Shown here: positions 30 to 18,597 of the stretch, one piece after another | Position numbering within the stretch: the stretch's first letter is position 1 | Layout: the number at the start of each line of letters is the position of its first letter | DNA from: an uncultured Rhodobacterales bacterium | GTDB taxonomy: Bacteria; Pseudomonadota; Alphaproteobacteria; Rhodobacterales; Rhodobacteraceae | Length of the DNA: 52,402 nucleotides | NCBI GenBank assembly: GCA_964384315.1 | Contig: CAYLLD010000001.1 | Span: 5,224-57,625 of the forward strand | Direction of reading: 5' to 3' | Position numbers and translations under genes: made by a program | Notes under the pieces: generated by a model | Database searches by the model: none | What the model was told of the DNA's origin: nothing | What the model saw: the letters and a program-made list of their open reading frames with translations, nothing else

Positions 30-3000
30 CTAGGCGGCATCAAACGCCTCGATATGCAAAACAATATCTTGGAAATCATCATCGCTTGTTGCATCACGAC
101 GCTGGTCTTCGAACCCAATTTGCAAACCTTCGCCAGATAGCGATAGTCCCGAAACCACGTGTTCCATCCCATCGGCGTTAAGCTCAGCGTCATGAGATAA
201 GAAAATCGTCGACCCCAATACTTGCTCGCCATCATTGGTAAGTTGCGCACGACCAGAAGAGGTGTCGAGCCCAAGATCGCCTTGGATGAGGGTTGTGGTG
301 TCGAGTTGGTTGTAGCCGTTTTGGATAACAAAAAAGCCAAGTTTGTGGCCTTCGGTTACGTCGTCAACAGTGAAGGTTGTAGGAGCAGTCTTAATATTGC
401 CCGCCAATAGACGCACTTCATAAATCGCCCCGCTTTCATCATACTCATAAACTCCAAGTGAGTTTGAGTAGAGGGCGGTATCATCTGATGCAACGATCGT
501 GACCATGAAGTCCGAAATAGCTTCGGTACCCATGAGATAGAGGTCATTTTCGATGCCGTTGACCAAATTGTCGCCGACGCGGCCACCTTCGGTGAGCCCG
601 CCGATGAACTTATTAAAGGTCACCACGGTTTCAGCGCCATTGTAAATCGCCAAGAAACCACCGCCGGAAAATTCGCCCTGCAAGAGAATAACCTCATCAA
701 CAGTGCCGTCATTGTCACGGTCAATTCGGATTTCTTGGTTCGCCATATCGACCAATAATTTGTCTTGCTCGATCATGCCTTGCAGCGAAATGTCGTCCTC
801 TTCCGAGATCGTCGCTAGGATAGGTGCTGCAATCTCCGGTGCGACTTCCGTTAAATCGGATGACACAACCAATGGCTCAACCTCTGAGGTAATCGGGTCC
901 AAAGTTGATCCCAAAGTTGCCGCTTCGATGCGCGGTCCACCGGTAACCCCCGATAGGCCAGCGTCGAGATTTGCCACTGAAATACCACCAGAAATTTCAA
1001 CTGATGCGGAAATTCCGTTCCCATCGGCATCGGTGGTCCAGACGTCGCTATCTACGGCCTCATTGCCACCAACATTGCCGCGCATGAACCCGCGTCCATC
1101 GCGGTCGCCTTCGAATAGGACGTAATAATGTCCATCAGATAGACCGCCAAAACCATAGTAGCCGTCTGCGCTGGTGGTGGTTGATGCAACAATCAAGCCA
1201 GCGGACATCAAGATTACCCGTGCGCCAGAAACCGCATTGTCGCGCGAGCTTTCAAAACCGTCGAGATCATTATCGACAAAAAAGCGACCAGTGATTTTGC
1301 CTTCGCCGGACGTGGCAACCGAAACAGGTGTTTCATCAGGAACTGAAATTACAGGCGGAGCTATTGCTACAGCCTCAACGCCAGCATCAACGATGACGCT
1401 GGTTTGGGTACTGGATATCTCAAAGGTGCCCGAAATGCCGTTACCATCGGAATCGGTTTTCCAAACGTCGCTATCACGGCTTTCATCACCGCCCACATTG
1501 CTGCGAACAAATGCACGTCCGTTAGCGTCGGCGCCAAATTCGACATAATAATAACCGTCGTCCAGCCCTGTAAATTTGTAACCGCCATTGGCGTCGGTAG
1601 ATGTCGTTGCAACCACTTGGCCTCGACTAATCAAAGCAACGGTTGCGCCAACAACAGCGGTCTCACCAGCATCAACAAAATCATTGTTGTCGTCATCGAT
1701 GAGGTAACGGCCACTCACTTGGCCGCCTGCCACGAGTGTTTCGGGCACTTCGACAATAATTGGGGCCGAATTTTCTGCCAAAGTTTCAGGCGCTGCCGTA
1801 ACAGGAGTCTCAGGCGCTGTTGTGACAGGAGTCTCAGGCGCTGTCGTGACAGGAGTCTCAGGCGCTGTTGTGACGGGTGCGGCGGGTGCCGCCTCTGCCT
1901 CTAGGCCGAGATCAACATCGGTGATCGTTGTTCCAGACGAGACTTCATAAGTGGATGAAAATCCACGTCCTTCTGAATCCGTCTTCCAAACATCGCTATC
2001 AACCGCGTCGTTCCCGCCGACATTGCCGCGGATAAAGTCGCGGCCCTGCGCGTCGGTAGAGAACCGTACGAAATAGTAACCATCCGCAAGGCCACCAAAC
2101 GAATATGCGCCGTCACCATCAGTGAGCGTGGTTGCAACGACGCGGCCGCCGCTCATCAGTTCAACTTTGGAACCGCTAACCCCCGCCTCATCAGTGTCTT
2201 CGAGATCATTGTCGTTGGCATCAACAAAGATGCGTCCAGCAATCGATCCACCAATTTTGGCAGGCTGTGGCACGGGGCCGACGTTGGATGTCGTTGTCTC
2301 TTCAACCGTGAGGACCGGAGCAACTGGCGCAGGTTCAGGGGTCACTTCTACAAGTGCCGCTGGTTCAGAGACGCTAAGCTCAATACCTTGCTCGAATGGC
2401 TCACCATCCATGAAGCTCTTGGTGATTTGATCTGGGCCGGTGCCAGCCGCGCCCATTTCGGCAATTTGATCCGCCGACATTGCGCCGCGCAGGAAAGAGA
2501 AGTTATCGACCAAACCATCGAAACTCTGACCATAGGGGCTACCGATGTAGAGCTTATCGTTCACGCCAATTTGCGACGTCCCAACATTGTTGATCGTCTT
2601 GATGTGCTCACCGTCAAGATAGAGCGACGCGGTTTTCTCGACCCCATCAAAGGTCATCACAACGCGGTGCCAATCAGTGTTATCAATCGGCAGAAACCGC
2701 TCGTTGATCCAGTGAATGCCAGTATCCGACCCGTAGGATGCAATCAAAGCATCATTGCGAATGCTCATGGTGAAGCTATTCGAGAACCAGAACAGATCGC
2801 CCCAGTCAGACATATTGTCCTTGCGGAAATCGGCGACAACCGTGAACTCGCGGTTATTGAAGAAATCGGCGGTGTTTTCATAGGCGATGTGGCCGCCGGA
2901 AAGCTTGGCAACTTTAGAGCCGCCATCGTCAACGAATTGAACCGACCCATGTGCCACGCCAGCCATGTTATGCGGCGACGCCTCGCGCACGCCGCTATCA

Positions 3001-4466
3001 AAGCCCGTGCCAATAGCCAGAGGCAGCTCGGCATCAATGGTTTTTTGGCTCTCGATCGTGCGGCCATCTGCCAGACGGACCGTGGCCTTCACTTCGTAGA
3101 TGCCATATTCAGCATAGAAATGCGTGGTTGTAAGCTCGCTCGTCGACATCTTTTTGCCGTCGCCAAAGTCCCAGTCAACGCGGGTAATCTCGTCAGTAAT
3201 TCGGCCGTCTTCGTCAAAAAGCTCAGACAAATCAAAGCTGTGGTTGTTTAGGTAAAGACCGTCACCCGCCTCGTTTTGCAACAGGCCGTAGGGCTCTTCG
3301 GGATTGGTATCAAAATCCAAAAGACGCGAGCCGATGTTTTTACGTGCAACTGTACTGCCCGGCAGGTCCATCAAATCCGTCAAGATATCCAGATCATTGG
3401 CCAGCGGGTTCACGAAGTTGTTCGCGATATTATTATCCGAAAGCGGGTTATCGTAATTCGCGATCAGATTATTGGCTTCATAGGCACCCGAGGGTGCTAA
3501 GATTTCGGTTGTGACGTTATTGATGATCCGCACGTTGCTAGAGCCGTCAGACACGCGAATGATCGGCGGGTGCGATTTCACCTCACCATAGGCAACCGAG
3601 TAGGATTTCTCATTCACAACAATCGTGTTGTTATAGATCGTGACGCCATCGGTCTCTGCGATGGTGATCCCATGCGGGTCGTTGTTGTGGATGATGTTAT
3701 CCGTCACAACGATGTTTTTGTATTTCTTGCCCGTCGAGCCGTATTGCTCGTTGTTCAGGAAAATCGACTGCGCCGCCAAACCGTCGGCGCTATCCAGAAT
3801 ATTGTTCCGGATATAAAGGTCTTGCGTCACGCTCTCCGCACTTGTTGACCACAGTTGGATCATGTCGAGGTGGTTAATGCTGGCATCAGAGCCAAGCAGA
3901 TCGTGGATGTAGTTATTCTCGATATAGGCTTTCTGAACGCCAGCGACCTGAATCGGATCCGCCTGCATCGAGTGAAACTCATTGCCGCTGATCGTAACAT
4001 TCTCGCTCTCAAGAACGGTCACGCCAAAGAAAAAGTTCGACACAAGGTTATTTTCAAACGTCAGACCATCGGCATATTTGATGTTCGTCAAATTTCCAGC
4101 GGCCCGCTCGTTGCCGTTTTGGGACAGATACTCGGTGCCTGTGCCAACCATGACGCTGTCGCGCACGGTTACATTTTTACTATCGCGCAGATGCAGAACC
4201 ACATCAGCACCACCAAAGGCCGTGCTTTCCTCGAACCGAAGGTTTTCGAAGGTGAGGTTGTTGACGCTATAAAGTTCGACGCTCTGGAACACCGCCGGAT
4301 CATTTGGATCAGCCGAGCGGAACGTGATGCCCTGTTTGTAAATATTGTAGGGGTCCAGCCGCAATGCATAAGCAGTTTCGGACTTATTGAGCAGGATAAC
4401 ATCGCCCGGATTGGTTTGCTCAACCGCGGCAATCAGCTCTTCGTTGTTACTAACAACATATTCCAA
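30..4466 (-). CDS. Giant (1478 aa) leaderless multidomain extracellular-type protein: right-handed parallel beta-helix, PKD domain, LamG/concanavalin-like domain, 3 SdrD-B-like (Cna-B-type) repeats, C-terminal DUF4114-like domain
   Basis: One uninterrupted 1478-codon ORF with a TTG start preceded by GGAGAG. The N-terminal ~330 aa show beta-helix periodicity (NLTFENLRF, NVTVRDSV, NVTISGNEF, IYNNTIVVN). PKD signature VDWDFGDGK at aa ~430. LamG-like block at aa ~495-672. Three ~115-aa repeats of the form G(R)xFxDxNxNGxxDxxExGVxGxxVxL...TDxxGxYxFxxLxDGxYxVxF...DSDVW. The C-terminus, IGFEDQRRDATSDDDFQDIVLHIEAF, matches the DUF4114 end motif. No N-terminal hydrophobic signal. Confidence 0.85.
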   Translation of the reverse strand: MEYVVSNNEELIAAVEQTNPGDVILLNKSETAYALRLDPYNIYKQGITFRSADPNDPAVFQSVELYSVNNLTFENLRFEESTAFGGADVVLHLRDSKNVTVRDSVMVGTGTEYLSQNGNERAAGNLTNIKYADGLTFENNLVSNFFFGVTVLESENVTISGNEFHSMQADPIQVAGVQKAYIENNYIHDLLGSDASINHLDMIQLWSTSAESVTQDLYIRNNILDSADGLAAQSIFLNNEQYGSTGKKYKNIVVTDNIIHNNDPHGITIAETDGVTIYNNTIVVNEKSYSVAYGEVKSHPPIIRVSDGSSNVRIINNVTTEILAPSGAYEANNLIANYDNPLSDNNIANNFVNPLANDLDILTDLMDLPGSTVARKNIGSRLLDFDTNPEEPYGLLQNEAGDGLYLNNHSFDLSELFDEDGRITDEITRVDWDFGDGKKMSTSELTTTHFYAEYGIYEVKATVRLADGRTIESQKTIDAELPLAIGTGFDSGVREASPHNMAGVAHGSVQFVDDGGSKVAKLSGGHIAYENTADFFNNREFTVVADFRKDNMSDWGDLFWFSNSFTMSIRNDALIASYGSDTGIHWINERFLPIDNTDWHRVVMTFDGVEKTASLYLDGEHIKTINNVGTSQIGVNDKLYIGSPYGQSFDGLVDNFSFLRGAMSADQIAEMGAAGTGPDQITKSFMDGEPFEQGIELSVSEPAALVEVTPEPAPVAPVLTVEETTTSNVGPVPQPAKIGGSIAGRIFVDANDNDLEDTDEAGVSGSKVELMSGGRVVATTLTDGDGAYSFGGLADGYYFVRFSTDAQGRDFIRGNVGGNDAVDSDVWKTDSEGRGFSSTYEVSSGTTITDVDLGLEAEAAPAAPVTTAPETPVTTAPETPVTTAPETPVTAAPETLAENSAPIIVEVPETLVAGGQVSGRYLIDDDNNDFVDAGETAVVGATVALISRGQVVATTSTDANGGYKFTGLDDGYYYVEFGADANGRAFVRSNVGGDESRDSDVWKTDSDGNGISGTFEISSTQTSVIVDAGVEAVAIAPPVISVPDETPVSVATSGEGKITGRFFVDNDLDGFESSRDNAVSGARVILMSAGLIVASTTTSADGYYGFGGLSDGHYYVLFEGDRDGRGFMRGNVGGNEAVDSDVWTTDADGNGISASVEISGGISVANLDAGLSGVTGGPRIEAATLGSTLDPITSEVEPLVVSSDLTEVAPEIAAPILATISEEDDISLQGMIEQDKLLVDMANQEIRIDRDNDGTVDEVILLQGEFSGGGFLAIYNGAETVVTFNKFIGGLTEGGRVGDNLVNGIENDLYLMGTEAISDFMVTIVASDDTALYSNSLGVYEYDESGAIYEVRLLAGNIKTAPTTFTVDDVTEGHKLGFFVIQNGYNQLDTTTLIQGDLGLDTSSGRAQLTNDGEQVLGSTIFLSHDAELNADGMEHVVSGLSLSGEGLQIGFEDQRRDATSDDDFQDIVLHIEAFDAA
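1786..1881 (-). repeat. 4 x 24-bp in-frame tandem repeat encoding the (TAPETPVT)n linker inside the 1478-aa gene
   Basis: Units tcaggcgctg(c/t)(c/t)gt(a/g)acaggagtc at 1786, 1810, 1834 and 1858, differing by 1-3 nt. They translate on the minus strand to TTAPETPVTTAPETPVTTAPETPVTAAPET. Confidence 0.9.
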
Positions 4467-4625
4467 AATTACTCTCCACTGCCGATTGGCTTGGGGGCTG
4501 TCCCTGCTTCATTCCGAGAACTTGCAAAACGGGCACTAGTTAACCTAGGAAGATATGAACCATCCCTGTTGGCTTTCATAGCGGCACCCTGCCCTCGTGA
4601 CTTAAAAAATTAACTAAAGAATTGC

Positions 4626-4696
4626 CGACAAATTTCGACAAATAATTGTCGCTTTCGCAATTATGGCGAAAAGGCGCGGATGCGTAAAATTTGTCG
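4626..4696. promoter_or_regulatory. Cluster of four CGACAAAT / ATTTGTCG-type half sites in the divergent intergenic region between the beta-helix giant gene and the exosortase gene; candidate operator array
   Basis: gCCGACAAATttCGACAAATaaTTGTCG at 4626-4651, plus AAATTTGTCG at 4687-4696. That gives two direct and two inverted copies within ~70 bp of a 765-bp AT-rich non-coding spacer. Confidence 0.35.
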
Positions 4697-5231
4697 TTAG
4701 TTTTCATTTTCAGTCAGCTATATTTTTCTCTTTTATTTCAACAGGTAAACCCGCATGCAAGAAGCCGATTAGTGAAACATTTACCAAACCGGCGGCATTC
4801 CGCTGGCTGCTAAAAAAAGCAGCAATCACGGACATGTTACGCATCTTGCTTGGAAAATTATGGCCCCACCTAGAATCATCCCCAACACGCTGATTTCACC
4901 ACATTAGAAAGGGACAAGCAAAGTGGCCTGCGCACCTCTGGGCGGCAAAATCCTTTACTATATACGCCATTTTTACTGTGATTTTCGTACATATCGGGGC
5001 CGGATTGCCCACAGATCAAGGCGAGCCACCACTCGACTCACGTTACGTAACCTGTTTAACAGATTAAAAACGGGAAACAATAATTTGAGTAACTTTATCA
5101 AGAGGTTGATGCTTTCCTGCGCCAAACGCCTTATTATCTACGTGATTTGATGCAAAAATTCGGGCCAATGCGCCCTATTTGAACCCAAACGGTGGAGACC
5201 GCCGTAGTTTGAAAGCGAATACGGAGTAGTC

Positions 5232-6833
5232 ATGGTCGCCTATCAAGAAGAAACCAAGACCAATTGGCTCGCGGACCTTGCAGCCAACCGCTATGGTATG
5301 TTCTGGTTTTTGCTGCTTGTTGCGTCATCAATCCCAATATTCTGGCTTGGCTTTGTTTCATTGGGCGATGCTTGGTCGACGCCCGAATACAGCCACGGGC
5401 CGATTATCCCGTTGTTGTCATTCTATATGTTTCTGCGCGAAATGCGTCAGGTGCCTGCCGATCAAAGTGTAAAACGCCGCTGGCCCGGTGTTTTAATCAT
5501 CGGCCTCGCCCTATCCGTCGCTATTTTTGGCAACCTCACACGCATCCCCGACATCGTCACCTACGCTTTTATACTTTGGGTCGCGGGGGTGATTCTGCTC
5601 TGTTTCGGCTGGTCTCGTGGGCTGTTTTTCTGGACTGGCGTGCTGCATCTCGTTTACATGCTGCCCCTGCCGCAATTCCTCTATTGGAAACTCACGATCT
5701 GGCTGCAGCTTGTGTCATCGGAATTGGGGGTTTGGTTCATCCGGCTCATGGGCATCCCGGTGTTCCTCGAAGGCAATGTTATCGATCTGGGTGTCTACAA
5801 ACTTCAGGTGGCCGAGGCCTGTTCGGGCCTCCAGTACCTTTTCCCAATTCTGTCATTTTCTTACGTGTTTTGCGTGCTTTACAATGGGCCGATCTGGCAT
5901 CGCATTGTGATTTTGCTCGCCGCGGCGCCCATCACGGTTTTGATGAATTCATTTCGCATCGGCATGATTGGGGTTTTGGTAAATTACTTTGGCATCTCCC
6001 ACGCCGAGGGTTTTTTGCACTACTTCGAAGGTTGGGTGATCTTCGGTGCTTGCGTGGCGATCCTATTTATCCTCGCGGTCCTGATGCAGCGGCTTCAACG
6101 CAATCCAAAGCCCTTGGCCGAAACCCTCGACATTGAGTTCGCAGGCACTGGCCCACAGCTCGCCCGTATCTTTTCCATACCCCTGACAGGTTTGCTGACA
6201 ACGGCCGCCCTCGCCACTTTTGCGCTCAGCGCGCTTTGGCTGGCCGGACCGCAACGAGAAATCGAGCGCCCGACCCGTGAGCCCTTCGGCGTATTTCCAT
6301 TGGGTCTTGAAACCTGGAGCGGAGATACATCCCCGTTGGAACCGTCGGTTGAGACGGTGCTGGGTGCGGACGACTATATACAGGCCACTTTCTTTGGGCC
6401 GGGCGAGCCCGCTTCGGTGGGGTTCTTTGCCGCCTATTATCACAAGCAAACCGAAGGTTCGGGCATTCACAGCCCCGAGGTTTGTCTGCCTGTGGGCGGC
6501 TGGGAGATGTTCGACATTCAGCAGGTAGAGGTCGATCTTGAGCCCCAGACTGGCTGGCCACCTTTTCAAACCAACCGAGCGGTGATTCAAAAGGGGTTGG
6601 ATCGGATGCTCGTCTATTATTGGTTTGAACAACGCGGCAAACGCATGACCAACGATTTTTCCGTTAAGCTCTCAACGGTCCGTGACAGTCTAGTTCTAGG
6701 CCGCTCTGACGGGGCATTGGTTCGCTTTACGACGCCAATGGACCGCGAAGAGAGCGTTGCGAGCGCAGAGGCACGCATCCAACGGCTGGTTGCTGAAGTT
6801 TTACCGCATCTTGATCGCTACCTACCCCATTAA
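5232..6833 (+). CDS. Exosortase (EpsH/Xrt family) fused to a C-terminal EpsI-family periplasmic domain
   Basis: ATG preceded by GGAG. Polytopic membrane N-terminal part with exosortase hallmarks: WSTPEYSHGPIIP, catalytic Cys in VAEACSGLQYLF (Cys197, nt 5820-5822), NSFRIG, and His-rich ISHAEGFLHYFEGW. The C-terminal ~200 aa (from ~nt 6234) are EpsI-like: FPLGLETWSGD, LGADDYIQATF, GIHSPEVCLPVGGWE, LVYYWFEQRGKR, GALVRFTTP. Confidence 0.88.
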   Translation: MVAYQEETKTNWLADLAANRYGMFWFLLLVASSIPIFWLGFVSLGDAWSTPEYSHGPIIPLLSFYMFLREMRQVPADQSVKRRWPGVLIIGLALSVAIFGNLTRIPDIVTYAFILWVAGVILLCFGWSRGLFFWTGVLHLVYMLPLPQFLYWKLTIWLQLVSSELGVWFIRLMGIPVFLEGNVIDLGVYKLQVAEACSGLQYLFPILSFSYVFCVLYNGPIWHRIVILLAAAPITVLMNSFRIGMIGVLVNYFGISHAEGFLHYFEGWVIFGACVAILFILAVLMQRLQRNPKPLAETLDIEFAGTGPQLARIFSIPLTGLLTTAALATFALSALWLAGPQREIERPTREPFGVFPLGLETWSGDTSPLEPSVETVLGADDYIQATFFGPGEPASVGFFAAYYHKQTEGSGIHSPEVCLPVGGWEMFDIQQVEVDLEPQTGWPPFQTNRAVIQKGLDRMLVYYWFEQRGKRMTNDFSVKLSTVRDSLVLGRSDGALVRFTTPMDREESVASAEARIQRLVAEVLPHLDRYLPH

Positions 6834-6848
6834 TGGCGCTGGCCGTTA

Positions 6849-7025
6849 TTATTGGCTTTCCGGCTTGGAGTTGACGCTAAAGGTCAGCTCGGTGACCTGC
6901 CCCGCGACAGGAAATTTCGGGCGGGGCGGTTTAGGCAATAGCGTAAAAGCCCCAACGGTGGTGGCGGTCGTCGCGCCAGCCCCGGCCAAAATCAATCGCC
7001 GGGTCATTTTCGCATCGCTGCTCAT
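6849..7025 (-). CDS. Possible small (58 aa) protein with a twin-arginine-like signal or anchor (MSSDAKMTRRLILAGAGATTATTVGAF...)
   Basis: ATG at 7025 with AAGGGG 8 nt upstream, starting 14 nt after the stop of the 827-aa gene on the same strand. T-R-R-L-I-L is followed by a mildly hydrophobic Ala/Gly/Thr stretch. Third-position GC looks genome-like. No homology recognised, and it could be a gene remnant. Confidence 0.3.
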   Translation of the reverse strand: MSSDAKMTRRLILAGAGATTATTVGAFTLLPKPPRPKFPVAGQVTELTFSVNSKPESQ

Positions 7026-7039
7026 GGCCAAGGCCCCTT

Positions 7040-9523
7040 TTACAATATCCAGTCATCGCTGCTGTTATAGACAGCGCCATTTGCCAGCTCGACACCCGCA
7101 TCCGCATGGCGCATCGAGGTGTTGTCATCGACAAAGTACGAGCTGGAAACACCCACTTCGCCGTTTACGCGCCACACATCGCTGTCGATCTGATCATTTC
7201 CGCCAACATTGCCGCGGATAAAATCAAACCGATCCGGCTCGTCAAATGAAACCGAATACCAACCATCGTCTAGTCCGGTGAAGGCATAGGCACCATTTTC
7301 GCCGGTTCTCGTGGTGGCCACAGTTTGCCCGCCGCGCGTTAATGAAACACTAGCACCAAAAACACCGGGTTCGTTGGGGTCTTCGAACTCATCCCCATCA
7401 CGATTGATAAACATTCGCCCAGAAATGACCCCGCCACCTGTAGGCGGCGCAGGTGTCGGGATAGTTGGTGCATTGACCGTACCGCCCGTCCCCAAAAGGC
7501 CCGCATCGAGATCTAGTTCTGATCTAGTCGAAGAAATTTGATACTTTGCCGCCTCGCCATTGCCGTTGATGGTGCGCCAAACATCACTGTCAAAATTGTC
7601 TTCGCCGCCAACATTTACGCGGGAAAATTCGCGGCCGGTCTGCTCTTCGAAGAGCGCCCCGTACCAACCATCGGACAGCCCCGTGAAACTGTAAGCGCCA
7701 TTGCCATCAGTTGTTGTCGTCTCGACAACTTGAGATCCGCGGACCAAAGAGATTGTGGCCCCGGCCACGCCGGTTTCGCCATTATCCTCGCGTCCATTCT
7801 CATTGGCGTCGTTGAAATAGCGCCCGGCCAGAGTGCCACCACCTGCTGGAGGTGTTGGTGCGGGGGGTGTTGGTGCGGGGGGTGTTGGCGTGCCACCGCC
7901 ATTGCCCGAACCCACTAAGCCCGCGTCTAGATCAACCTCGGAGCGAGAAGATGAAATCTGATACTTCGCCGCCTCGCCATTGCCGTTAATCGTACGCCAC
8001 ACATCGCTATCAAAATCGTCATTTGCTGCGTTGACGCGCACAAAGTCGCGACCTGCTTGGGTTTCAAACAAGGCACCGTACCAGCCATCGGACAGCCCAG
8101 TGAAACTATAGGCTCCATTTCCATCGGTGGTGGTTGTGGCAACAACTTGTGACCCTCTTACCAAAGAAATTGTCGCACCTGAGACCCCAGTTTCACCTGC
8201 GTCTTCGCGATTATTCCCATTTTCGTCATTAAAATAACGTCCGGCCAACGTTCCACCGCCAGGTTGAGTTGGCGGTGTTGGGGCCGGTGGCGTTGGGGTT
8301 GGCGGTGTTGGGGTAGGTGTCGTGCTCACCGCGGGCTCAATACCAGCATCCGCATGGCGCATCGAGTTTGAACCGTTGACCAAATACGAACTCGTCACCC
8401 CAACGCCGCCCGCGCCCGTGGTCCAAACATCGCTATCGATCAGATCATTCGATCCGGTATTGCCGCGGACAAAACTGCGACCATTGGCATCCTCTTCGAA
8501 ATGGGCAGCATAATAGCCATTGCTCAAATTATCGAAGCTATAGCGGCCATTTGAATCAGTCGTCGTCGTGTCGACCACCTGCCCGCTGCGCACGAGTGAA
8601 ACTGTTGTGCCCGACACGCCAGGCTCGCCCGCGTCTTCGAGATTATTCCCATTCTCGTCTAACCAAAGGCGCCCAGCCAAAGTGCCATCTTCTGAAGACG
8701 GCGGCGTTGGGGCAGGCGGTGTAGGTTCCGGTGGGGTTGGACGTGCCGCGTTGCCTTCCAGCGGAATTGCGTGGCTTGCATGCGCATCGGCTGCAATTGA
8801 CTGCATCAACTCAGCATCTGACCGCGATACGCCTCGGGGCAGATATTCAGAAGGGCTTGGCGGAGTTTCATTAAAGACCGTCCAATAGAAAACATTCGCC
8901 TGCATATAGGACAAAAGAGCAGTGGCGTGTACCTCGTCTTCGGTCAAAATCCGTTCGGCGGTTTCCCCGTTGTCGCCATTTCCATATCGCGCGGTAATTG
9001 CTTTGTAAGCTTCGGAATAGGCCAGTCCAGCCGGTGCCAAGGCGGCATCATTGCGAATGGCGGTGCTTCGATAAAGGGCTTGAATGTCAGTTCCGAATGG
9101 GTCGCCTGCATTCAGCCGGTTCAAGTCAACCATCCAGTCGCCAGGCCAGTTTGTGTGCATCACTAACTGGCCGCCGTTTGCCTCAACCAAGTTGGAAAAG
9201 CGTGCGGCATAGGTGTTGAATTCGGCAATCCGCGATTGGTCTAAGTTGCGACCGTCGTGCATTTGCGTGGGGAGTGCGCCAAGAATGACAACATCATACT
9301 TGCCGCTGCGAATTTCATCCTGCGCGGCCATATAGCCAACGTCTTCCCAATGCGCGCGCAGGTTCGCACCACCGCGGTCAGACAAGGATGTTGTGACATC
9401 GTGACCGCCGCGTCGGGCGAGGTCTTCGAACTGATCGATTGTGCGTAAATTTACGTCGTTATTCGGACGGAAATAAACAAATGAATTCGATACAAAAAGG
9501 ACTTCCAACGTCTCACTCCCCAA
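7040..9523 (-). CDS. Leaderless 827-aa protein: N-terminal SGNH/GDSL-type hydrolase domain (DUF4886-like) followed by 4 SdrD-B-like repeats separated by Pro/Thr-rich linkers
   Basis: TTG start with a stop just upstream, so no room for a signal peptide. SGNH blocks are present: LFVSNSFVYF (Ser), VVILGA, and DEVH (DxxH) at aa 196-199. Four ~115-aa repeats end in DSDVW. Linkers are RPTPPEPTPPAPTPP, TPTPTPPTPTPPAPTPP and TPTPPAPTPPAPTPP. The protein ends in SSDDWIL. Confidence 0.85.
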   Translation of the reverse strand: MGSETLEVLFVSNSFVYFRPNNDVNLRTIDQFEDLARRGGHDVTTSLSDRGGANLRAHWEDVGYMAAQDEIRSGKYDVVILGALPTQMHDGRNLDQSRIAEFNTYAARFSNLVEANGGQLVMHTNWPGDWMVDLNRLNAGDPFGTDIQALYRSTAIRNDAALAPAGLAYSEAYKAITARYGNGDNGETAERILTEDEVHATALLSYMQANVFYWTVFNETPPSPSEYLPRGVSRSDAELMQSIAADAHASHAIPLEGNAARPTPPEPTPPAPTPPSSEDGTLAGRLWLDENGNNLEDAGEPGVSGTTVSLVRSGQVVDTTTTDSNGRYSFDNLSNGYYAAHFEEDANGRSFVRGNTGSNDLIDSDVWTTGAGGVGVTSSYLVNGSNSMRHADAGIEPAVSTTPTPTPPTPTPPAPTPPTQPGGGTLAGRYFNDENGNNREDAGETGVSGATISLVRGSQVVATTTTDGNGAYSFTGLSDGWYGALFETQAGRDFVRVNAANDDFDSDVWRTINGNGEAAKYQISSSRSEVDLDAGLVGSGNGGGTPTPPAPTPPAPTPPAGGGTLAGRYFNDANENGREDNGETGVAGATISLVRGSQVVETTTTDGNGAYSFTGLSDGWYGALFEEQTGREFSRVNVGGEDNFDSDVWRTINGNGEAAKYQISSTRSELDLDAGLLGTGGTVNAPTIPTPAPPTGGGVISGRMFINRDGDEFEDPNEPGVFGASVSLTRGGQTVATTRTGENGAYAFTGLDDGWYSVSFDEPDRFDFIRGNVGGNDQIDSDVWRVNGEVGVSSSYFVDDNTSMRHADAGVELANGAVYNSSDDWIL
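7427..8260 (-). repeat. Tandem duplication (2 x 417 bp) of one SdrD-B repeat plus PT linker inside the 827-aa gene
   Basis: Protein aa 422-560 and aa 561-699 are near identical. Shared strings include GGGTLAGRYFND, GATISLVRGSQVV, TTTTDGNGAYSFTGLSDGWYGALFE, FDSDVWRTINGNGEAAKYQISS. At DNA level the copies are offset by 416-417 nt (for example 7511 versus 7927). Confidence 0.85.
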
Positions 9524-9656
9524 AACAATTCGCTTTGGCGATGATAGGTCTTGCGATGCAAAAAACCAACTAGTTTGAAGCCCTTAAGCGCTTCAGTTGA
9601 CTAAGTTTTGAACCCGTGAATTGAGGCCCAGTTGAACGCAAATTTGGTTGGCCCAT

Positions 9657-9690
9657 AAAAAAGCCCGCCGAAACCATTGGCGGGCTTTTG
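9657..9690 (-). terminator. Rho-independent (bidirectional-type) terminator downstream of the 924-aa gene
   Basis: AAAAAAGCCCGCC-gaaaccatt-GGCGGGCTTTT: an 8-bp GC stem flanked by an A-run and a T-run, about 20 nt past the stop at 9710. Confidence 0.75.
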
Positions 9691-9709
9691 TAACATATGG
9701 CCTCAGGCC

Positions 9710-12484
9710 TTAGCCGATCCAATCGTTTTGGTTTGCATCAATCGCGTAGCGCGAAGCAACATCATCAGCGATATCTTGCATCAGCCTTGCATCAGCAGTG
9801 GACACACCACCAGGGCGATACTCAGATGTATCTGGCGCGTCTTCATTCATCAAAGTTTCGAACAAGACGTTCGCGGCAAGATACGCACCTATCGAGTCAG
9901 CATGGATGGCATCGACCGTCAAAATTGCCTCAGCTTTCTCGCCATTGTCGCCATACCGCTTGGACAACTCAGCATGTGCCGATGCCATCGCAAGACCGTT
10001 GGGCGCGTAATAGGCGTTATTCGCACTGGCCGTTGACCTGTAAACATCATGCGCCTCGGGCGAGAAGGTGTCGCCACCTCGAACGTCGATCTGCCAATCG
10101 CCAGCCCAGATGCCATAAAACACAGTTTCTGCGCCATTGGCATCGGCCAGATCAGTGAATTTGTCCGCGTAGTTCTTGAACTCGGCAACGCCACTTGTTG
10201 ACTCGATATTCTTATTGCTGCCCTGAAGGACGACCAGATCGATATCACCTGACTTGATGATACGCTGTGCATCCGATGTGTCCCAAAGCTTCTTGAGCGG
10301 CGACCCACCAATATAAGCGCTTTGATAAGTTACATCGTAACCAGCAACATCCAACATGGCGAGGAAATGCCCTTCTGGACTTTCCGATTTGTCCCCATTG
10401 GGGGCGAAGTAGGTATAGCTATTGCCCACGAACAAAATCGACATTTCTTTCTCGCCACTTTGCGGTGTCGGCGTGGGTTTTGGTGTCGGAGTCGGAGTTG
10501 GTGTCGGATCAGGCGTAGGCGCGTTCTTAACCACAATACCAGCGTCGGTATTATAGAAAGACTTACCACCGCTTACATCGCGATAGTCCGCTTCACCCCA
10601 ATTACCCGAGGTTTTCCAGACATCGCTGTCGATTGAGTCATTGCCGCCAGTATTGGTGCGCGTGAACTCGTAGGAAGACGAGGGCAACTGAAACTCAACG
10701 CGATAACCACCATCTTCAAGGCCCGAGAACTTATAGTTACCGTTTCCGTCCGTCTTGGTTGTCGTGACAGTGCGCCCAGATTGCGTCAAACGCACGGTAG
10801 CTCCGGACACGGCGCTATCGCTGCTGTCCTCGATCCCGTCCGAGTCTTCATCGTAGAAAAAGCGGCCTGCAATCGCACCATTTTTCACAACAACTTCAAC
10901 AGGTTCAGGCGTTGGCGTTGTTTGCTTTGACTTGATGCCAGCGTCGACATTGCTAACCGAAGACCCGTTCTTGACTTCGTAGTTTCCAGTCAGGCCAAAC
11001 CCGCCTGAATCTTTCCATACATCACTGTCGTTCGCGTCGTTGCCACCAGCATTGGTCCGGGCAAAATCATTGCTACCGCCTGGCTTGGCGAACTGAACAG
11101 CATACCAACCATCATCGAGATCGGAGAACTTATATTTACCGTTTCCGTCAGTCTTAGACGTCGCAACAACTTTTCCGTTTTGAAGCAAACGCACTTGGGC
11201 GCCAGAAAGGCCGCTATCGCCACCGTTCTCTGTATCCGAGCCATCTCTATCCCAGAAATACCGGCCCTCGAGTGATCCCGCAGATTTGGCAGGAACAGGT
11301 GTCGGCACCGGCTCGACGGATGTTTTTGATAGCAAACCGGCATCGACATTTGAAACCGTACTGCCATTTTTAACTTGGAACGACGTCGTCCGGCCATCGT
11401 TATTTGATGTGGTCCAAACGTCGCTGTCGACTGTGTCACTGGTCGCATTTCCGCGCGTGAATTTATAAGCACTGGAAATCAGGTCAAACTCAACCCCGTA
11501 CCAGCCGTCGGGCAGGTTATCGAAGCTGTAATCGCCGTTGCCATTGGTTTTCGTCGTGGCGATTACTTTGCCGCTTTGCATAAGACGAACTGTCGCCCCG
11601 GACACACCGCTATCGCCGCCATCTTCGCTGGCCGATCCGTTCCGATCAAAGAAATAACGCCCCTTTAGAGTTCCATCTTCCGACAACTTAATCGGTGACG
11701 GCTCAGGTGAACGCTCTTCAGCGTGTTTGGCGCTGTGCAAACCCGCATCTACATCGGAAACTGTGTTACCGTTCTTGATAACGACCTGACTTGATACACC
11801 AGTGCCGTTTGAGTTGGTTTTCCAAACGTCACTATCGACCGCGTCGTTTGAACCCACATTAGTCCGTGCAAAACTTGCGCCGTTAACGCTACCGAACTCA
11901 ACCGAATATCCGCCATCTTCAAGCCCGGTGAATTGGTAGTTACCACTTCCGTCGGTTTTGGATGTCGCAACAACTCTGCCGTCTTTGATCAGTCGGACGG
12001 TCGCGCCGGACACGCCACTATCGCCGCCATCCTGTTTGTCAGACCTGTTGTTGTCATAGAAATACTGACCTTTGACCACGCCTTTACCATCGGACGCGCG
12101 TGTCTGCGTGACGCTTGTGTTTGATGAGGGGACGATCGCTGCATCAATATCACTTACGTAAGAGCCGCGGCCAACATAGAACGAGCCGGAAATGCCTGCG
12201 CCGGAACCATCGGTCTTCCAAACGTCGCTATCTAGACGCTCATCGCGACCAACACCGGTTCGGGCGAACTGGCTGCCATATTCTGACTTAGAAAACTTGA
12301 CGTAGTGGTAACCTTGATCGACGTCAGAAAAGCGGTAGTTCCCGCTAGAATCCGTACGCGTTGTCGCAACCAGGTTCGAGCCCTGATAAAGATAGACGGT
12401 GGCACCGGGGATCCCGATGTCTGAACTGTCTTCGACATTCGTACCGTTCTTGTCGATGAAATAACGGCCTGCAACTGTAGACAT
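9710..12484 (-). CDS. Leaderless 924-aa protein: 5 SdrD-B-like repeats, a PT linker, then a C-terminal SGNH/GDSL-type hydrolase domain (paralog of the N-terminal domain of the 827-aa protein)
   Basis: The protein begins directly inside repeat 1 (MSTVAGRYFIDKNGTNVEDSSD...). There are five repeats ending DSDVWK/T. The linker is APTPDPTPTPTPTPKPTPTPQ. The SGNH domain has ILFVGNSYTYF, VVLQGSN and DAIH (DxxH). It ends in NQNDWIG. Confidence 0.85.
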   Translation of the reverse strand: MSTVAGRYFIDKNGTNVEDSSDIGIPGATVYLYQGSNLVATTRTDSSGNYRFSDVDQGYHYVKFSKSEYGSQFARTGVGRDERLDSDVWKTDGSGAGISGSFYVGRGSYVSDIDAAIVPSSNTSVTQTRASDGKGVVKGQYFYDNNRSDKQDGGDSGVSGATVRLIKDGRVVATSKTDGSGNYQFTGLEDGGYSVEFGSVNGASFARTNVGSNDAVDSDVWKTNSNGTGVSSQVVIKNGNTVSDVDAGLHSAKHAEERSPEPSPIKLSEDGTLKGRYFFDRNGSASEDGGDSGVSGATVRLMQSGKVIATTKTNGNGDYSFDNLPDGWYGVEFDLISSAYKFTRGNATSDTVDSDVWTTSNNDGRTTSFQVKNGSTVSNVDAGLLSKTSVEPVPTPVPAKSAGSLEGRYFWDRDGSDTENGGDSGLSGAQVRLLQNGKVVATSKTDGNGKYKFSDLDDGWYAVQFAKPGGSNDFARTNAGGNDANDSDVWKDSGGFGLTGNYEVKNGSSVSNVDAGIKSKQTTPTPEPVEVVVKNGAIAGRFFYDEDSDGIEDSSDSAVSGATVRLTQSGRTVTTTKTDGNGNYKFSGLEDGGYRVEFQLPSSSYEFTRTNTGGNDSIDSDVWKTSGNWGEADYRDVSGGKSFYNTDAGIVVKNAPTPDPTPTPTPTPKPTPTPQSGEKEMSILFVGNSYTYFAPNGDKSESPEGHFLAMLDVAGYDVTYQSAYIGGSPLKKLWDTSDAQRIIKSGDIDLVVLQGSNKNIESTSGVAEFKNYADKFTDLADANGAETVFYGIWAGDWQIDVRGGDTFSPEAHDVYRSTASANNAYYAPNGLAMASAHAELSKRYGDNGEKAEAILTVDAIHADSIGAYLAANVLFETLMNEDAPDTSEYRPGGVSTADARLMQDIADDVASRYAIDANQNDWIG

Positions 12485-13095: not shown

Positions 13096-14103
13096 TTAGG
13101 CGATTTTCTTTTTGATATCGCGGCTCGGCGGCAGCATCAGCATACCGCGGATTGCTGCGCCTGCAGGCGCAAATTGGCCTCGGATCAACATTTGCGCAAT
13201 TTTACCAGCGTTGAACGCAACGGCAATCGGTAGGGCGATCGGCTTGAATTCTGCGATAAATCGCTGGCGAGACCGGGCCATGAAGTAAGAGGCCAGTTTA
13301 GACGGGGCCTTATCGAAAGAATGCGAGCCGATAACAGTTCCAGCGATGTGATGGATCGAACTGGTCTGGCAGTACTTCAGCGGCAAATCACCCCGATTTA
13401 GGCACCAAGAGACCTCATCATAGTAGATGAAATAGTGCTCGGGCATCGGACCGGCGACATCAAGAAACTCGCGGCTGACGAGCATATGCGCGCCCATGAC
13501 GTAATCCATGTCTTCGCCGCGAGGCGTAGGCGCCTCGCTGCCCTCTACGTAGGCATTCAAGTTTGAACACACACCCGTCCATAGGTTTACGCAACCGCCA
13601 TCTGATTGGATCGTCGTGGGCGGGCGAAGATAGTAAACGCGGCCCCCGATTGCGCCAAAGCGGCCTGCGTTATCCGCGTATTTTTTAAATTCAGCGGCAG
13701 AGTCGTTCAGAACCACAGAATCTGGGTTCAAAATCCAGAAATAGTCGATGTCGTCCATCGCCTTGAAGGCCTCGCAGCCCTTGTTGACCGCATAGGCATA
13801 ACCGCCGTTCTTGCCCGAATGCCAGAGCGTGATCTGACCTTCAGGGATATGTTTGGGCATTTCATGAGTTTCGACATAGGGGAGAGCGCCATGTTCGATG
13901 GGCTCAAACGGCATATCGTCGCTTTTTTGCCAAGTCCGCCGACCCTCTGCCCAGTCGCGGATTAGCTCGACCGTGTTATCTTTGCTTTCGTTATCCACCA
14001 CCAGAATGCGAACGTCACACCCATGAGAGGCAATAACACTTTCCAAACAATCGAGGATTTCTTCGCCCGTGTTGTAAGTCACAATGACAAGGCCAAGAGC
14101 CAT
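13096..14103 (-). CDS. Family 2 glycosyltransferase (rhamnosyltransferase-like GT-A fold)
   Basis: N-terminus LGLVIVTYNTGEEILDCLESV...VVDNESKDNT, then NGGYAYAVNKG and WILNPDSV (DxD-like), typical of GT2. Confidence 0.8.
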   Translation of the reverse strand: MALGLVIVTYNTGEEILDCLESVIASHGCDVRILVVDNESKDNTVELIRDWAEGRRTWQKSDDMPFEPIEHGALPYVETHEMPKHIPEGQITLWHSGKNGGYAYAVNKGCEAFKAMDDIDYFWILNPDSVVLNDSAAEFKKYADNAGRFGAIGGRVYYLRPPTTIQSDGGCVNLWTGVCSNLNAYVEGSEAPTPRGEDMDYVMGAHMLVSREFLDVAGPMPEHYFIYYDEVSWCLNRGDLPLKYCQTSSIHHIAGTVIGSHSFDKAPSKLASYFMARSRQRFIAEFKPIALPIAVAFNAGKIAQMLIRGQFAPAGAAIRGMLMLPPSRDIKKKIA

Positions 14104-14147
14104 GGGAATTCCTTACTTAAAACTTTAAAAATTGCCGCTAGAAAGAG

Positions 14148-14177
14148 CAATTGGCGCCATATCTTTGGCGCCAATTG
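14148..14177 (-). promoter_or_regulatory. Perfect 11-bp inverted repeat (CAATTGGCGCC-N8-GGCGCCAATTG) between the oxygenase and GT2 genes; hairpin (attenuator or weak terminator) or operator
   Basis: Read directly from the sequence. It lies 9 nt after the oxygenase stop and 45 nt before the GT2 start. A moderately T-rich tract (CTCTTTCT) follows it on the minus strand. Confidence 0.3.
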
Positions 14178-14185
14178 TCTTAAGC

Positions 14186-15001
14186 TTAGGCTTTTTCGTC
14201 GTAGACTTGTGAAGCTGTCTCGACGTCGGCGCGTTTGCGGATCAGATCCAGCACCGCCTCATCAGATTTTTGATCTTCGGTTGGGGCGAACAAAGCTTTG
14301 CCGCGATCATCTACATCTGCCGGTGGGTGGCACAAATAGTAAACCGCGAGACTTTTGCGCGATTGGCCATCTGGGCAAGTCAGTGGATCGGGCAGGCCGT
14401 GCCAGCTATTTTGCGTGGTATCAAACACCGCTGCGCGGTTGAATACTGGCTCAATTTGCTTTTCCAAGGCACCTGGTGCCTCGTCGGTTTCATTGCCCCA
14501 AAGGCCAAGGCTGCCGCCCCATGAATTTTGCCAATTTGGGTTCATGTAAACAATGATGTTAACTTTGCGCTGCAGGCCCAATTTCGGGTGCAGCGAGTAA
14601 TCCAAATGGGTGTTTAGCTTGCCGCCCTTGGTGTGGATATGCCAGCCGCCACCGTTTAGGCCGCTATCGGCAAAAAGCTCCATTCCACCAAACAAACGAT
14701 CGGACAAAAGCTTTACGAACTCCGCCGAGTTCAACATGTTGAATGCTTTGTAAGTCTCGGGCCTGAAATCGTTCCAGATGTTGCAAACCTTTTTGATTTC
14801 AATTGGGTTTGCGTATTTGTGCCAAAGCTCATCGTCGAATTCAGGGAATTCAGACTCTAGCTTTTGCGCAACATCCGGCGTGAAAAAGTTGTCGATGACC
14901 ATGTGGTCAAAGGGGCCTTCTTTGCCCCAAGTCTTTGCCGCTTCAACAATCCCGTCGACATTAAAATATGCCTTCAGTTCATCACTCACATCATCTGCCA
15001 T
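14186..15001 (-). CDS. 2OG-Fe(II) oxygenase of the prolyl-4-hydroxylase / Tpa1-OGFOD1-like type
   Basis: Internal ATG at 15001 with GGAGAAG upstream; the longer ORF up to 15103 has no RBS support. Motifs: PFDHMVIDNFF, the HxD iron ligands in NTHLDYS, IIVYMNPNW..WGGSLGLW, the distal His in NSWHGLP, and the 2OG-binding RKSLAVYY. Confidence 0.75.
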   Translation of the reverse strand: MADDVSDELKAYFNVDGIVEAAKTWGKEGPFDHMVIDNFFTPDVAQKLESEFPEFDDELWHKYANPIEIKKVCNIWNDFRPETYKAFNMLNSAEFVKLLSDRLFGGMELFADSGLNGGGWHIHTKGGKLNTHLDYSLHPKLGLQRKVNIIVYMNPNWQNSWGGSLGLWGNETDEAPGALEKQIEPVFNRAAVFDTTQNSWHGLPDPLTCPDGQSRKSLAVYYLCHPPADVDDRGKALFAPTEDQKSDEAVLDLIRKRADVETASQVYDEKA

Positions 15002-15260
15002 CGTTACTTCTCCGAGATCCTGTTCTTTGCCTTCGGTGTACCTAGGGCAGCATGTATTTCTATTCTGCAGGTTCGACAACTTTTTTTGAAACCCCCCACA
15101 CATATACCCTGCAAACTTGGCAGGTTTGCACCAAAAGCGCTCTCGCGAGGCCTTAATAGGCCGAAAAGTACTAATAACCGGGAAATTTGTGACGCTCTAC
15201 GTCAATTTTTTGGAATTCTATCGACACCATTTTTTCGATTAACCGCGTCACTCCCGCGAA

Positions 15261-16040
15261 CTATGCGTCCAAATTGCGGTTGATCTTACGTAAACCCGCC
15301 CGTGCTTTTAGCTCTGCCATTATGCCAAGCTGGCTGCCACGAAACTCTCGCCCAATGTTTAGATCCTGCGGCTCGCCAACGAGCGGCCCCTTTTGTGCGG
15401 CTTTAAGCACGTCGATGTAAGACCGCGTACCCGCCAGCACAGCACGCGCGAAAACCGCATGGAGCCCGTCACCTTTGACAAGCTGCGCCTGCTGGGTCGC
15501 AAAGATGCGCCCACCGTCCACATCCGATGTACATTCATGCACCGTCGCACCGATCATATGCGGCTCATTGAAGGCGAGCGGCCAAAAGGCGCAAGCGACG
15601 CCGCGATACCAAGGGCTAAGGCCCGTGTGCATATTCAGTGCAACCGTGCCCGCAAGTTCCAGCACATCGTCGGGGATGATCCCGGTGCCATAAATCGCTA
15701 GAACATCTGGTGTCTCAGCGCGCAACTGCTCGGCCAAGACCCCGGCGCGGGGGCGACCTACGCGTGATACAAGATCATCGCGTTTGATGGCATGGCTATC
15801 CTCGCCCAGAACCGTGATCAAAGCGGCATCGCGTGCTGCCGCATCGCCGATGAGTTTCAAATAGAGGCTGCGCAGGGTCTTGGAGACAAAGCGTCCCGGC
15901 GTTGCGCGCAGCATCTTTTTCCACGACCGTGGCGGGGTTGGATCGCAAACAAAAATCGCGGCGACATCCATTGCCGCACAAATCTGGTTCGTGACATAAT
16001 TATGGGCGGGGCTATCGCCGGTGATGATGACGGTTTTCAT
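15261..16040 (-). CDS. Formyltransferase-family protein (N-terminal Fmt/PurN/ArnA-type catalytic domain only)
   Basis: MKTVIITGDS..., ALNMHTGLSPWYRGV (NxHxSxLPxxRG-like), GATVHECTSDVDGGRIF (catalytic His...Asp). Confidence 0.75.
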   Translation of the reverse strand: MKTVIITGDSPAHNYVTNQICAAMDVAAIFVCDPTPPRSWKKMLRATPGRFVSKTLRSLYLKLIGDAAARDAALITVLGEDSHAIKRDDLVSRVGRPRAGVLAEQLRAETPDVLAIYGTGIIPDDVLELAGTVALNMHTGLSPWYRGVACAFWPLAFNEPHMIGATVHECTSDVDGGRIFATQQAQLVKGDGLHAVFARAVLAGTRSYIDVLKAAQKGPLVGEPQDLNIGREFRGSQLGIMAELKARAGLRKINRNLDA

Positions 16041-16043
16041 AGA

Positions 16044-16943: not shown

Positions 16944-17092
16944 TTACGGGCCCCCTAGATATTATTATCAAAACCAGCCGTACAATTATGGCACGACAGA
17001 TTCATCACCATTTTTCAGAATTTCGTTGATTCTTTCTAAGAGGCATGACGATTTTTGAAAAAAACTGGTCAGTGCAATCTAAATGAGGCGTC

Positions 17093-18163: not shown

Positions 18164-18597
18164 TTTCTTCCTACGGTCCATTACACCACACTGGCACCAA
18201 AACATTTAGGCGGCACTTCAAGATCGTCACGCTCACTCAGAAGATTCGACATTCTATTGGGGTTTTTGCCGAACCGTCGCCTTGGTGCAAGTGACTGGAC
18301 GATATTCTGCCTAATTATTTTAAATGCCTCATGGCAACGATTCTGCCATGACCTTTATTTAAGCAAAAATTAGTACAAATTCACGCCACTCCCCCCCCAC
18401 AAGCAGTATTGAGCAGAAACTCGCTTTTGTACTTACCCAGTTCTAGAGTGCTAATTGGACAGAATCTTGGTGTTATTGATAGAAATGAGATGGTTTTTTT
18501 GGAAAACTTAACCTCAATCTGCTCAGGTGCGACAAGAGGCGGTCCGCTCTATCGGATCACGTTGCAAACTCAGGGCCAATCGCGCTAACAGAATTAT

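Follow-up and report, generated by a model that had tools for sequence, protein, structure and literature searches.

Three long minus-strand open reading frames (ORFs), encoding the proteins P1, P2 and P3, lie in a 52,402-nucleotide stretch of DNA from an uncultured Rhodobacterales bacterium (GenBank assembly GCA_964384315.1, contig CAYLLD010000001.1, positions 5,224 to 57,625), referred to here as the window. The products are leaderless, cysteine-free and acidic, carry arrays of SdrD_B repeats, and combine these with enzyme-like domains: a right-handed beta-helix in P1 and an SGNH-hydrolase-like domain in P2 and P3. The favored reading, with a probability of roughly 60%, is that all three are exported by a type I secretion system (T1SS). 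A sequence-only reading of this DNA had already proposed non-Sec, T1SS-like export of proteins with acidic-then-hydrophobic C-termini, and the proposal has since gained support from the starts of orthologues, a split within the SGNH family and an RTX-bearing relative of the terminal module of P1.

In the proposed mechanism, P1–P3 would act as extracellular enzymes that tailor the exopolysaccharide (EPS) made by the surrounding XrtD-linked EPS locus. They would leave the cell in one step through a T1SS (ATP-binding cassette (ABC) transporter, membrane-fusion protein and TolC-like channel) whose genes lie outside the window. The transporter would recognize an uncleaved C-terminal signal that finishes in an acidic residue and three to four hydrophobic residues; the candidate ends are D-W-I-L (P2), D-W-I-G (P3) and, for P1, the end of the lectin domain, ..EAFDAA. 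In this scheme SdrD_B repeats replace RTX beta-rolls: they would be poorly folded in the low-Ca2+ cytoplasm and fold on extracellular Ca2+. Such Ca2+-driven folding would give export its directionality, and the repeats may afterwards serve as a rigid spacer.

Gene starts, missing leaders and composition

Judged by N-terminal hydropathy and charge rather than by SignalP, none of the three proteins begins with a leader. The maximum 12-residue hydropathy within the first 70 residues is 0.8–1.4 in P1–P3, compared with 2.0–2.9 in BamA, OmpH, CtpA and an M23 peptidase from the same window, and the first ten residues include 0–1 basic residues. An in-frame stop upstream of each first possible start, reported from the sequence alone, lies 14 codons away in P1, 20 in P2 (25 from its preferred start) and 4 in P3, with no earlier start codon between. 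Orthologues at 38–76% identity from independent assemblies start in the same register, with MEYVVSNN or MQHQVYNN in P1-type proteins, MEVLFVSNS, MDVLIIGNS, MKILFVGNS or MNLLFVGHS in P2-type proteins, and MSTVAGRYF, MSAVLGRYF or MSTVTGRYF in P3-type proteins. All 13 genes examined (those of the window and 10 related genes from other assemblies) have an in-frame stop 1–25 codons upstream and no leader-like in-frame peptide. The low hydropathy, upstream stops and conserved register bear out the earlier claim that no N-terminal export signal is present in any of the three; an alternative upstream start with a signal peptide, raised at the time as one outcome that would overturn it, was found in none of the 13 genes.

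The start of P2 calls for a correction. The longest P2 ORF (7040..9523, 827 residues) begins at 9523, and the N-terminus first given for this protein, MGSETLEVLF, followed that ORF. TTG 9508 is preceded by GGGGAG 6 nt upstream and gives the product MEVLFVSNS.. of 822 residues, which equals the database protein P0001 and has the same register as all orthologues; it is the likely start. The earlier N-terminus is therefore 5 residues too long, whereas the leaderless conclusion stands. P1 also begins with TTG, with GGAGAG 5 nt upstream.

It is highly improbable that faulty annotation or assembly makes the proteins look leaderless, a signal peptide having been lost by a wrong start, a frameshift or misassembly. 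The 5-codon ambiguity of the P2 start and one hydrophobic out-of-frame stretch upstream of P1 might be read that way, but the shared start register and upstream stops of the 13 genes, the unleader-like character of their upstream in-frame peptides and the good Shine-Dalgarno sequences before the called starts argue against it.

Composition sets the three proteins apart from their neighbors. Cysteine is absent from all 3224 residues of P1–P3, compared with a frequency of 0.85% in the other 34 genes of the window (P ~1e-12), and the isoelectric points (pI) are 4.1–4.5. T1SS lipases and S-layer proteins have likewise been described as cysteine-free and acidic (PMC3034196).

The SGNH family split and C-terminal tails

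A hidden Markov model profile search with the SGNH domain among 1.84 billion representatives found 4898 relatives, of which the best 144 full-length ones were compared. The tail motif was defined as an acidic residue, then at least three hydrophobic residues in the last four. Among the 92 relatives with a leader-like N-terminus, 3 are cysteine-free, none has RTX repeats and 1 has the tail motif, whereas the corresponding counts among the 52 leaderless relatives are 24, 13 and 18. Fisher p-values for these differences (4e-10 for absence of cysteine, 6e-7 for RTX and 1.7e-8 for the tail motif, in the best 144 of 4898) are indicative only, since the comparison sets include fragments and kin sequences and the values overstate independence.

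The split is almost complete in the close subfamily. Members from CPR (Candidate Phyla Radiation)-type and other lineages have leaders and end in ..AWYK, whereas those of Rhodobacterales/Paracoccaceae type lack a leader and finish in DDWIL, DFIV, DFVA, SDWFA, GDWLG, DDILIA, PDFWV, GLLIL and similar sequences. The leaderless proteins P0006, P0012 and three tandem paralogues from a Paracoccaceae metagenome-assembled genome consist of an SGNH domain followed by one or two SdrD_B repeats, RTX nonapeptides and a hydrophobic tail. The tandem paralogues (L010 7795..13490; L007 2008..7474) are ~560–575 residues long and adjoin polA; no transporter gene lies close to them. In a set of 26 leaderless subfamily members, RTX repeats occur in 0 of 10 with at least three SdrD_B repeats versus 14 of 16 with two or fewer (Fisher p = 1.2e-5, again indicative). 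The distribution suggests that one type of array, RTX or SdrD_B, stands in for the other. Further relatives came from profile scans of genome contigs, which gave 6 loci with a 5-sequence alignment; a scan with the N-terminal domain of P1 gave 4 loci, with genes listed for L020 only, and a metagenome scan with the SGNH alignment gave no match.

T1SS substrates of the protease/HasA class have an extreme C-terminal motif that begins with a negatively charged residue and continues with hydrophobic ones. In serralysins the signal lies within the last ~20 residues (PMC6891781), and the lipase TliA has the extreme C-terminal motif EGVLIS (PMC3430570). The C-termini of the window proteins, ...SSDDWIL in P2, ...NQNDWIG in P3 and ...HIEAFDAA in P1, read in the translations exactly as first reported. 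The end of P2 fits the motif, that of P3 fits except for its terminal residue, and that of P1 is in part the end of the lectin domain.

Across the family the D-[WF]-hydrophobic tail tracks the end of the polypeptide, not the type of domain. SGNH domains carry an extension (NQNDWIG, DGDWLG or DVDFVA) only where they are the last domain. Likewise, internal SdrD_B repeats are followed by a Pro/Thr linker, and terminal ones by DDWIL, DFIV, ..DAGLDVIV, ..DAGIDFII or ..YDFIV.

Two of these last endings belong to additional SdrD_B proteins without leader-like starts in the EPS locus of the organism that encodes P0007. One (L001 16261..20313, minus strand) has 1350 residues, galactose-oxidase/Kelch, legume-lectin and cadherin domains and 5 cysteines, and ends in ..DAGLDVIV; the other (L001 20582..21712, minus strand) is a cysteine-free repeat protein of 376 residues, from a gene call that may be 5'-truncated, and ends in ..DAGIDFII. 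Both have the same class of tail as the window proteins.

For P1 the argument takes a different course. LecB itself ends in ..NDAVVVINWPLG, and the P1 segment ..FQDIVLHIE is the intrinsic last strand of the LecB-type lectin fold; the P1 motif therefore carries less weight than DDWIL and NDWIG. Among non-orthologous relatives of the terminal module of P1 the closest, P0196, is a leaderless protein of 414 residues in which RTX nonapeptides immediately precede a DUF4114 domain at the very C-terminus (..MDAAVI), and another relative of this module, P0195, ends in ..DAPII. It is this RTX-DUF4114 relative alone that would point to type I secretion of P1.

Several points weigh against T1SS export of the three proteins. 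The case is built from sequence comparison, with the kinship within the comparison sets and the hydropathy-based leader test described above. P3 ends in glycine and the end of P1 is largely accounted for by its lectin fold, and the NCBIfam models of T1SS C-terminal target domains gave no match. RTX GGxGxD nonapeptides, whose absence the sequence-only reading had noted, number 0 in P1–P3 by strict and by loose matching, and no Pfam PF00353 HemolysinCabind match is found; the folded SGNH and beta-helix enzyme domains would have to remain export-competent without RTX. Finally, the annotated genes of the window include no ABC exporter, HlyD-type membrane-fusion protein or TolC gene, again as originally reported, and a Walker-A plus LSGGQ screen of 23 related loci (~330 kb) found only importer-type and ABC-F ATPases and no T1SS-type ABC exporter. 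Nor is there a transporter on the 6-kb contig of the RTX-rich relative P0062.

A broader proposal is more doubtful than T1SS export itself. In a Rhodobacterales-like lineage, SdrD_B arrays may have replaced RTX as the T1SS folding ratchet, with the four-residue tag D-[WF]-hydrophobic-hydrophobic-COOH, on any last domain, sufficing to bring large, multidomain EPS-tailoring enzymes to the transporter. The result would be a portable, RTX-free T1SS cargo design with a link to exosortase-type EPS loci.

Domain architecture and the surrounding EPS locus

Table 1. Features of P1–P3 and of their surroundings, in window coordinates
Feature	Position	Strand	Remarks
P1	30..4466	-	1478 aa; TTG start; leaderless, Cys-free, pI 4.1; beta-helix, PKD, LamG, 3x SdrD_B, DUF4114
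P1 tail ..HIEAFDAA	33..56	-	after DUF4114
P1 DUF4114 domain	48..353	-	LecB/PA-IIL-type Ca-dependent lectin; aa 1372-1473
P1 three SdrD_B repeats	954..2261	-	aa 736-1171; each ~116 aa, with DSDVW
P1 LamG/concanavalin-like domain	2460..2894	-	aa 525-669; Pfam
P1 PKD domain	3051..3197	-	aa 424-472; Pfam
P1 right-handed beta-helix domain	3432..4466	-	aa 1 to ~345; fold begins at residue 2; Pfam, predicted structure, fold search
XrtD exosortase-EpsI fusion	5232..6833	+	between P1 and P2; VPLPA-CTERM-specific; 663 bits on TIGR04152
P2	7040..9508	-	822 aa from TTG 9508; leaderless, Cys-free, pI 4.3; SGNH-like esterase domain, 4x SdrD_B, 16-aa tail
P2 C-terminal tail ELANGAVYNSSDDWIL	7043..7090	-	candidate type I secretion signal; extreme motif D-W-I-L-COOH
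P2 four SdrD_B repeats	7091..8686	-	Pro/Thr linkers between
P2 SGNH-hydrolase-like domain	8756..9508	-	N-terminal, from residue 1; alignment, predicted structure, fold search
Hairpin and T-run	9656..9688	-	directly after P3 stop; AAAGCCCGCC..GGCGGGCTTTTTT; GC-rich; loop 9 nt; read from sequence
P3	9710..12484	-	924 aa; ATG start; leaderless, Cys-free, pI 4.5; 5x SdrD_B, SGNH-like domain, 8-aa tail
P3 C-terminal extension ANQNDWIG	9713..9736	-	candidate extreme C-terminal signal
P3 SGNH-like domain	9737..10471	-	C-terminal; alignment
P3 five SdrD_B repeats	10535..12484	-	aa 1-650; first repeat begins at Met1
Flanking EPS biosynthesis genes	13096..25871	.	GT2, 2OG-Fe(II) oxygenase, formyltransferase, polysaccharide deacetylase, orf370, Wzy_C polymerase/ligase, rmlC, rmlB, orf676, Wzx-type flippase

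The repeats are Cna-B-like SdrD_B domains, predicted to bind Ca2+. The three proteins score 160, 257 and 307 bits on Pfam PF17210 (cut-off 29.7), in 12 stretches divided 3+4+5, which agrees with the count of 12 repeats in three large proteins in the sequence-only reading. Repeats are 113–116 residues long with the consensus G..GRyF.D.n....ED.g..gVsGAtV. Of the two acidic motifs singled out earlier, D-x-N-x-N-G-x-x-D recurs in the consensus as an EF-hand-like D-x-N-x-N-G-x-x-ED loop, and DSDVW is present in 12 of 12 repeats. PDB structures of the SdrD and UafA B domains can be aligned with the window repeats, EF-hand-like loop included, with E = 2e-8 to an SdrD chain. Distant and fragmentary SdrD_B matches occur in other phyla, several of them ending in a transmembrane segment plus basic anchor that the window proteins lack.

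The remaining domains correspond to those named from the sequence alone (beta-helix, PKD, LamG, Cna-B/SdrD-B, SGNH and DUF4114), most of them by Pfam and the SGNH domain by alignment, AlphaFold and Foldseek. In P1 the Pfam scan found Beta_helix, PKD, Laminin_G_3, three SdrD_B and DUF4114 matches. The beta-helix domain has no significant PDB match by sequence search; its likeness was found by fold search, where its neighbors are polygalacturonase, PL6 and other alginate lyases, the matrix-polysaccharide lyase RbmB of Vibrio cholerae and the A-modules of AlgE4 and AlgE6. The predicted fold thus likens P1 to a polysaccharide lyase or glycanase. DUF4114 scores 34.1 bits on Pfam PF13448 (gathering cut-off 27) and has been described as a LecB/PA-IIL-type Ca2+-dependent sugar-binding domain (PMC9109919). 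A P1 paralogue in a second organism (L018 1091..4150, plus strand; 1019 residues, leaderless and cysteine-free) combines beta-helix, PKD, LamG and DUF4114 without SdrD_B and ends in ..QAIDTVA, and the repeat array is therefore a modular insertion.

No Pfam or NCBIfam family matches the ~250 N-terminal residues of P2 or the ~250 C-terminal residues of P3. In alignment A1 the two share 42% identity; S14 (in GNS), N158 and H199 do not vary, and the Asp of D-x-x-H is conserved in most sequences. The AlphaFold model of the domain has a pLDDT of 88.6 and a pTM of 0.90, and its top Foldseek matches are SGNH esterases (probability 1.0), many of which are O-acetyl esterases or transferases that act on carbohydrate or peptidoglycan (e.g. 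Axe2, rhamnogalacturonan acetylesterase, PatB and Ape1). The SGNH profile also matches PDB 4s1p at E = 9e-8. The flavodoxin-like fold, block I Ser, conserved Asn and block V D-x-x-H place the domain in the SGNH/GDSL hydrolase superfamily, and the modeled structure likens P2 and P3 to carbohydrate esterases of the O-acyl esterase type.

This architecture bears on an alternative in which P1–P3 act in the cytoplasm, or at the inner-membrane face, on lipid-linked or nucleotide-sugar EPS precursors, the likeness of their C-termini to secretion signals being coincidental. The lack of a classical export signal of any type would agree with such a role, as would some distant, short, leaderless SGNH relatives with cysteines that may be cytoplasmic. 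However, PKD, LamG, Cna-B/SdrD_B, LecB-type lectin and Ca2+-dependent repeats are modules of extracellular proteins, members of this SGNH subfamily have Sec leaders in other lineages (e.g. L012 and L013), and neither the complete absence of cysteine nor RTX repeats in relatives would be expected of cytoplasmic enzymes. A cytoplasmic role is accordingly judged improbable.

P1–P3 are embedded in an EPS locus whose arrangement recurs elsewhere. In L018, GT2, P3-like, P2-like and XrtD genes occur in the same order, together with the deacetylase-formyltransferase-oxygenase block, and P1 orthologues adjoin rml, Wzy and glycosyltransferase genes in L001/L002 and L016. These recurring neighborhoods indicate that the three proteins are stable components of this type of EPS locus. 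A GC-rich hairpin and T-run after the P3 stop probably terminates P3, which would make P3 and P2 probably separate transcription units; a simple pattern scan for terminators misses this hairpin because of its 9-nt loop.

The exosortase XrtD, encoded between P1 and P2, is best regarded as context, and as a candidate partner at most. Assignment of P1–P3 as XrtD/VPLPA-CTERM substrates was rejected, with no NCBIfam sorting-domain match, no such tail and no hydrophobic 19-mer near either terminus. No ORF of the 52-kb window carries a VPLPA- or PEP-CTERM-type tail, so that XrtD substrates are encoded elsewhere. On a metagenome contig, beside a distant P1 relative, a 216-residue protein (L020 4299..4949, minus strand) has a Sec leader and a PEP-CTERM-like tail (..ALAGLGLARRRKAA).

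A further alternative is that P1–P3 leave the cell by another Sec-independent route, either an uncharacterized XrtD/EPS-linked pathway that reads the D-[WF]-hydrophobic C-terminus or passive release by lysis or vesicles. The position of XrtD between the genes, the P3-P2-XrtD order conserved in L018 and the lack of T1SS genes near family members in the loci screened are all consistent with this, and the DUF4114/LecB-type family includes leaderless surface lectins whose export is debated. Nevertheless, XrtD substrates need a Sec leader, a VPLPA motif, a transmembrane helix and a basic tail, whereas P1–P3 have none of these; XrtD is absent from the P1 orthologue loci, within ~10 kb on each side in L001/L002 and in the 1.7 kb available upstream in L016; and close relatives carry RTX repeats, a hallmark of T1SS cargo. 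T1SS export is preferred because of those RTX repeats and the missing XrtD-substrate features, and the other routes are considered unlikely, if less so than a cytoplasmic role.

Several other features of the window merit record. The oxygenase-formyltransferase-deacetylase block that is conserved with L018 (14186..16943, minus strand) hints that the EPS contains an amino-sugar that is N-formylated or modified in some other way. In the same locus, orf676 (22237..24267, minus strand) encodes 676 residues with no Pfam or NCBIfam match; the product is apparently leaderless, has 7 cysteines and no hydrophobic tail, and shows a cadherin-like stretch with DPDGD at its N-terminus, after which the sequence has, by eye, a beta-helix-like look. 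This product, too, may act on polysaccharide. The window also encodes a LuxR-family regulator (41058..41813, plus strand) whose autoinducer-binding domain is weak; it has no adjacent luxI-type gene and is a solo LuxR. Alphaproteobacterial housekeeping genes make up the rest of the window (lpxB-lpxI-lpxA-fabZ-ompH-bamA-rseP-dxr-cdsA-uppS-frr-pyrH, tsf, rpsB and infB). At 610 residues the infB product (50393..52225, minus strand) is short for an alphaproteobacterial initiation factor 2; its N-terminal region may lie in another frame, or the form may be genuinely short.

Related secretion systems and implications

The closest parallel is found in Rhizobium leguminosarum, where PrsDE exports leaderless EPS glycanases and cadherin-like Ca2+-binding proteins, most of them encoded away from prsDE (PMC2275737). 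The PrsDE substrates (PlyA/PlyB and Rap/cadherin-like proteins) resemble P1–P3 in being alphaproteobacterial, leaderless, mostly unlinked to their transporter and equipped for EPS processing or with Ca2+-binding repeats, several without canonical RTX (PMC2275737, PMC9298526). The window proteins differ in having SGNH esterase, LecB-type lectin and SdrD_B domains in place of Ra/CHDL, and in their XrtD context.

A precedent for the proposed role of the repeats is SiiE of Salmonella, whose secretion by a T1SS requires Ca2+ sites that lie in Ig-like repeats and are unrelated to RTX; these sites have been proposed to act like RTX (PMC5466336). Giant T1SS adhesins of the SiiE/LapA/MpIBP type share tandem Ca2+-binding beta-sandwich repeats with P1–P3. 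However, those are BIg-repeat adhesins with a transporter usually adjacent, whereas the window encodes enzymes of 0.8–1.5 thousand residues with Cna-B/SdrD_B repeats, no linked transporter and no N-terminal retention module.

Serralysins, family I.3 lipases and HasA, which use ABC transporters without C39/CLD, share the cysteine-free, acidic composition, and they have an uncleaved C-terminal signal with an acidic-plus-hydrophobic end of the kind proposed for P1–P3. Serralysins and the lipases, unlike HasA, also have 4–5 RTX nonapeptides and a C-cap domain; the window proteins lack both and are larger and multidomain. The B-repeat domain of the staphylococcal MSCRAMMs SdrC/SdrD and of UafA is homologous to the window repeats. 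These Gram-positive proteins combine a Sec leader with a ligand-binding A domain, an SD-repeat region and a sortase anchor of the LPXTG type, and only the repeat is common to both groups. Membership of P1–P3 in the MSCRAMM SdrC/SdrD family was rejected, with NCBIfam scores of 70–160 bits against cut-offs of 1700–2500 and matches confined to the B repeats.

Azotobacter AlgE mannuronan C5-epimerases are secreted by a T1SS and act outside the cell on its own EPS. Like P1, they fuse a beta-helix polysaccharide-modifying module to Ca2+-binding repeats, although the R-modules of AlgE are RTX beta-rolls where P1 has SdrD_B, and the fold match is generic for beta-helix enzymes.

Taken singly, the ideas are already known: EPS enzymes secreted by a T1SS, T1SS cargo without RTX, and Ig-like repeats that bind Ca2+ and assist T1SS export. 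What appears undescribed is the use of Cna-B/SdrD_B arrays in a T1SS role, a short terminus-tracking D-[WF]-hydrophobic tail, the exchange of RTX and SdrD_B within one enzyme family, and the link to XrtD-type EPS loci. Full-text literature searches on SdrD with T1SS or exosortase, and on VPLPA-CTERM, found nothing relevant.

Genome surveys usually spot T1SS cargo by its RTX repeats or by a transporter encoded close to it. P1–P3 have neither, so that standard annotation leaves them as "SdrD B-like domain-containing" or unnamed. If the T1SS reading is correct, the range of recognizable T1SS substrates would widen to enzymes with Cna-B-type Ca2+ repeats, and a simple sequence rule (leaderless, cysteine-free, acidic, with a D-[WF]-hydrophobic-hydrophobic end) would serve to find them. 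The family would also provide a natural RTX/SdrD_B substitution series usable for testing the Ca2+-ratchet model. The reading would further single out the likely extracellular tailoring enzymes, a lyase or glycanase and O-acyl esterases, of XrtD-associated marine exopolysaccharides.

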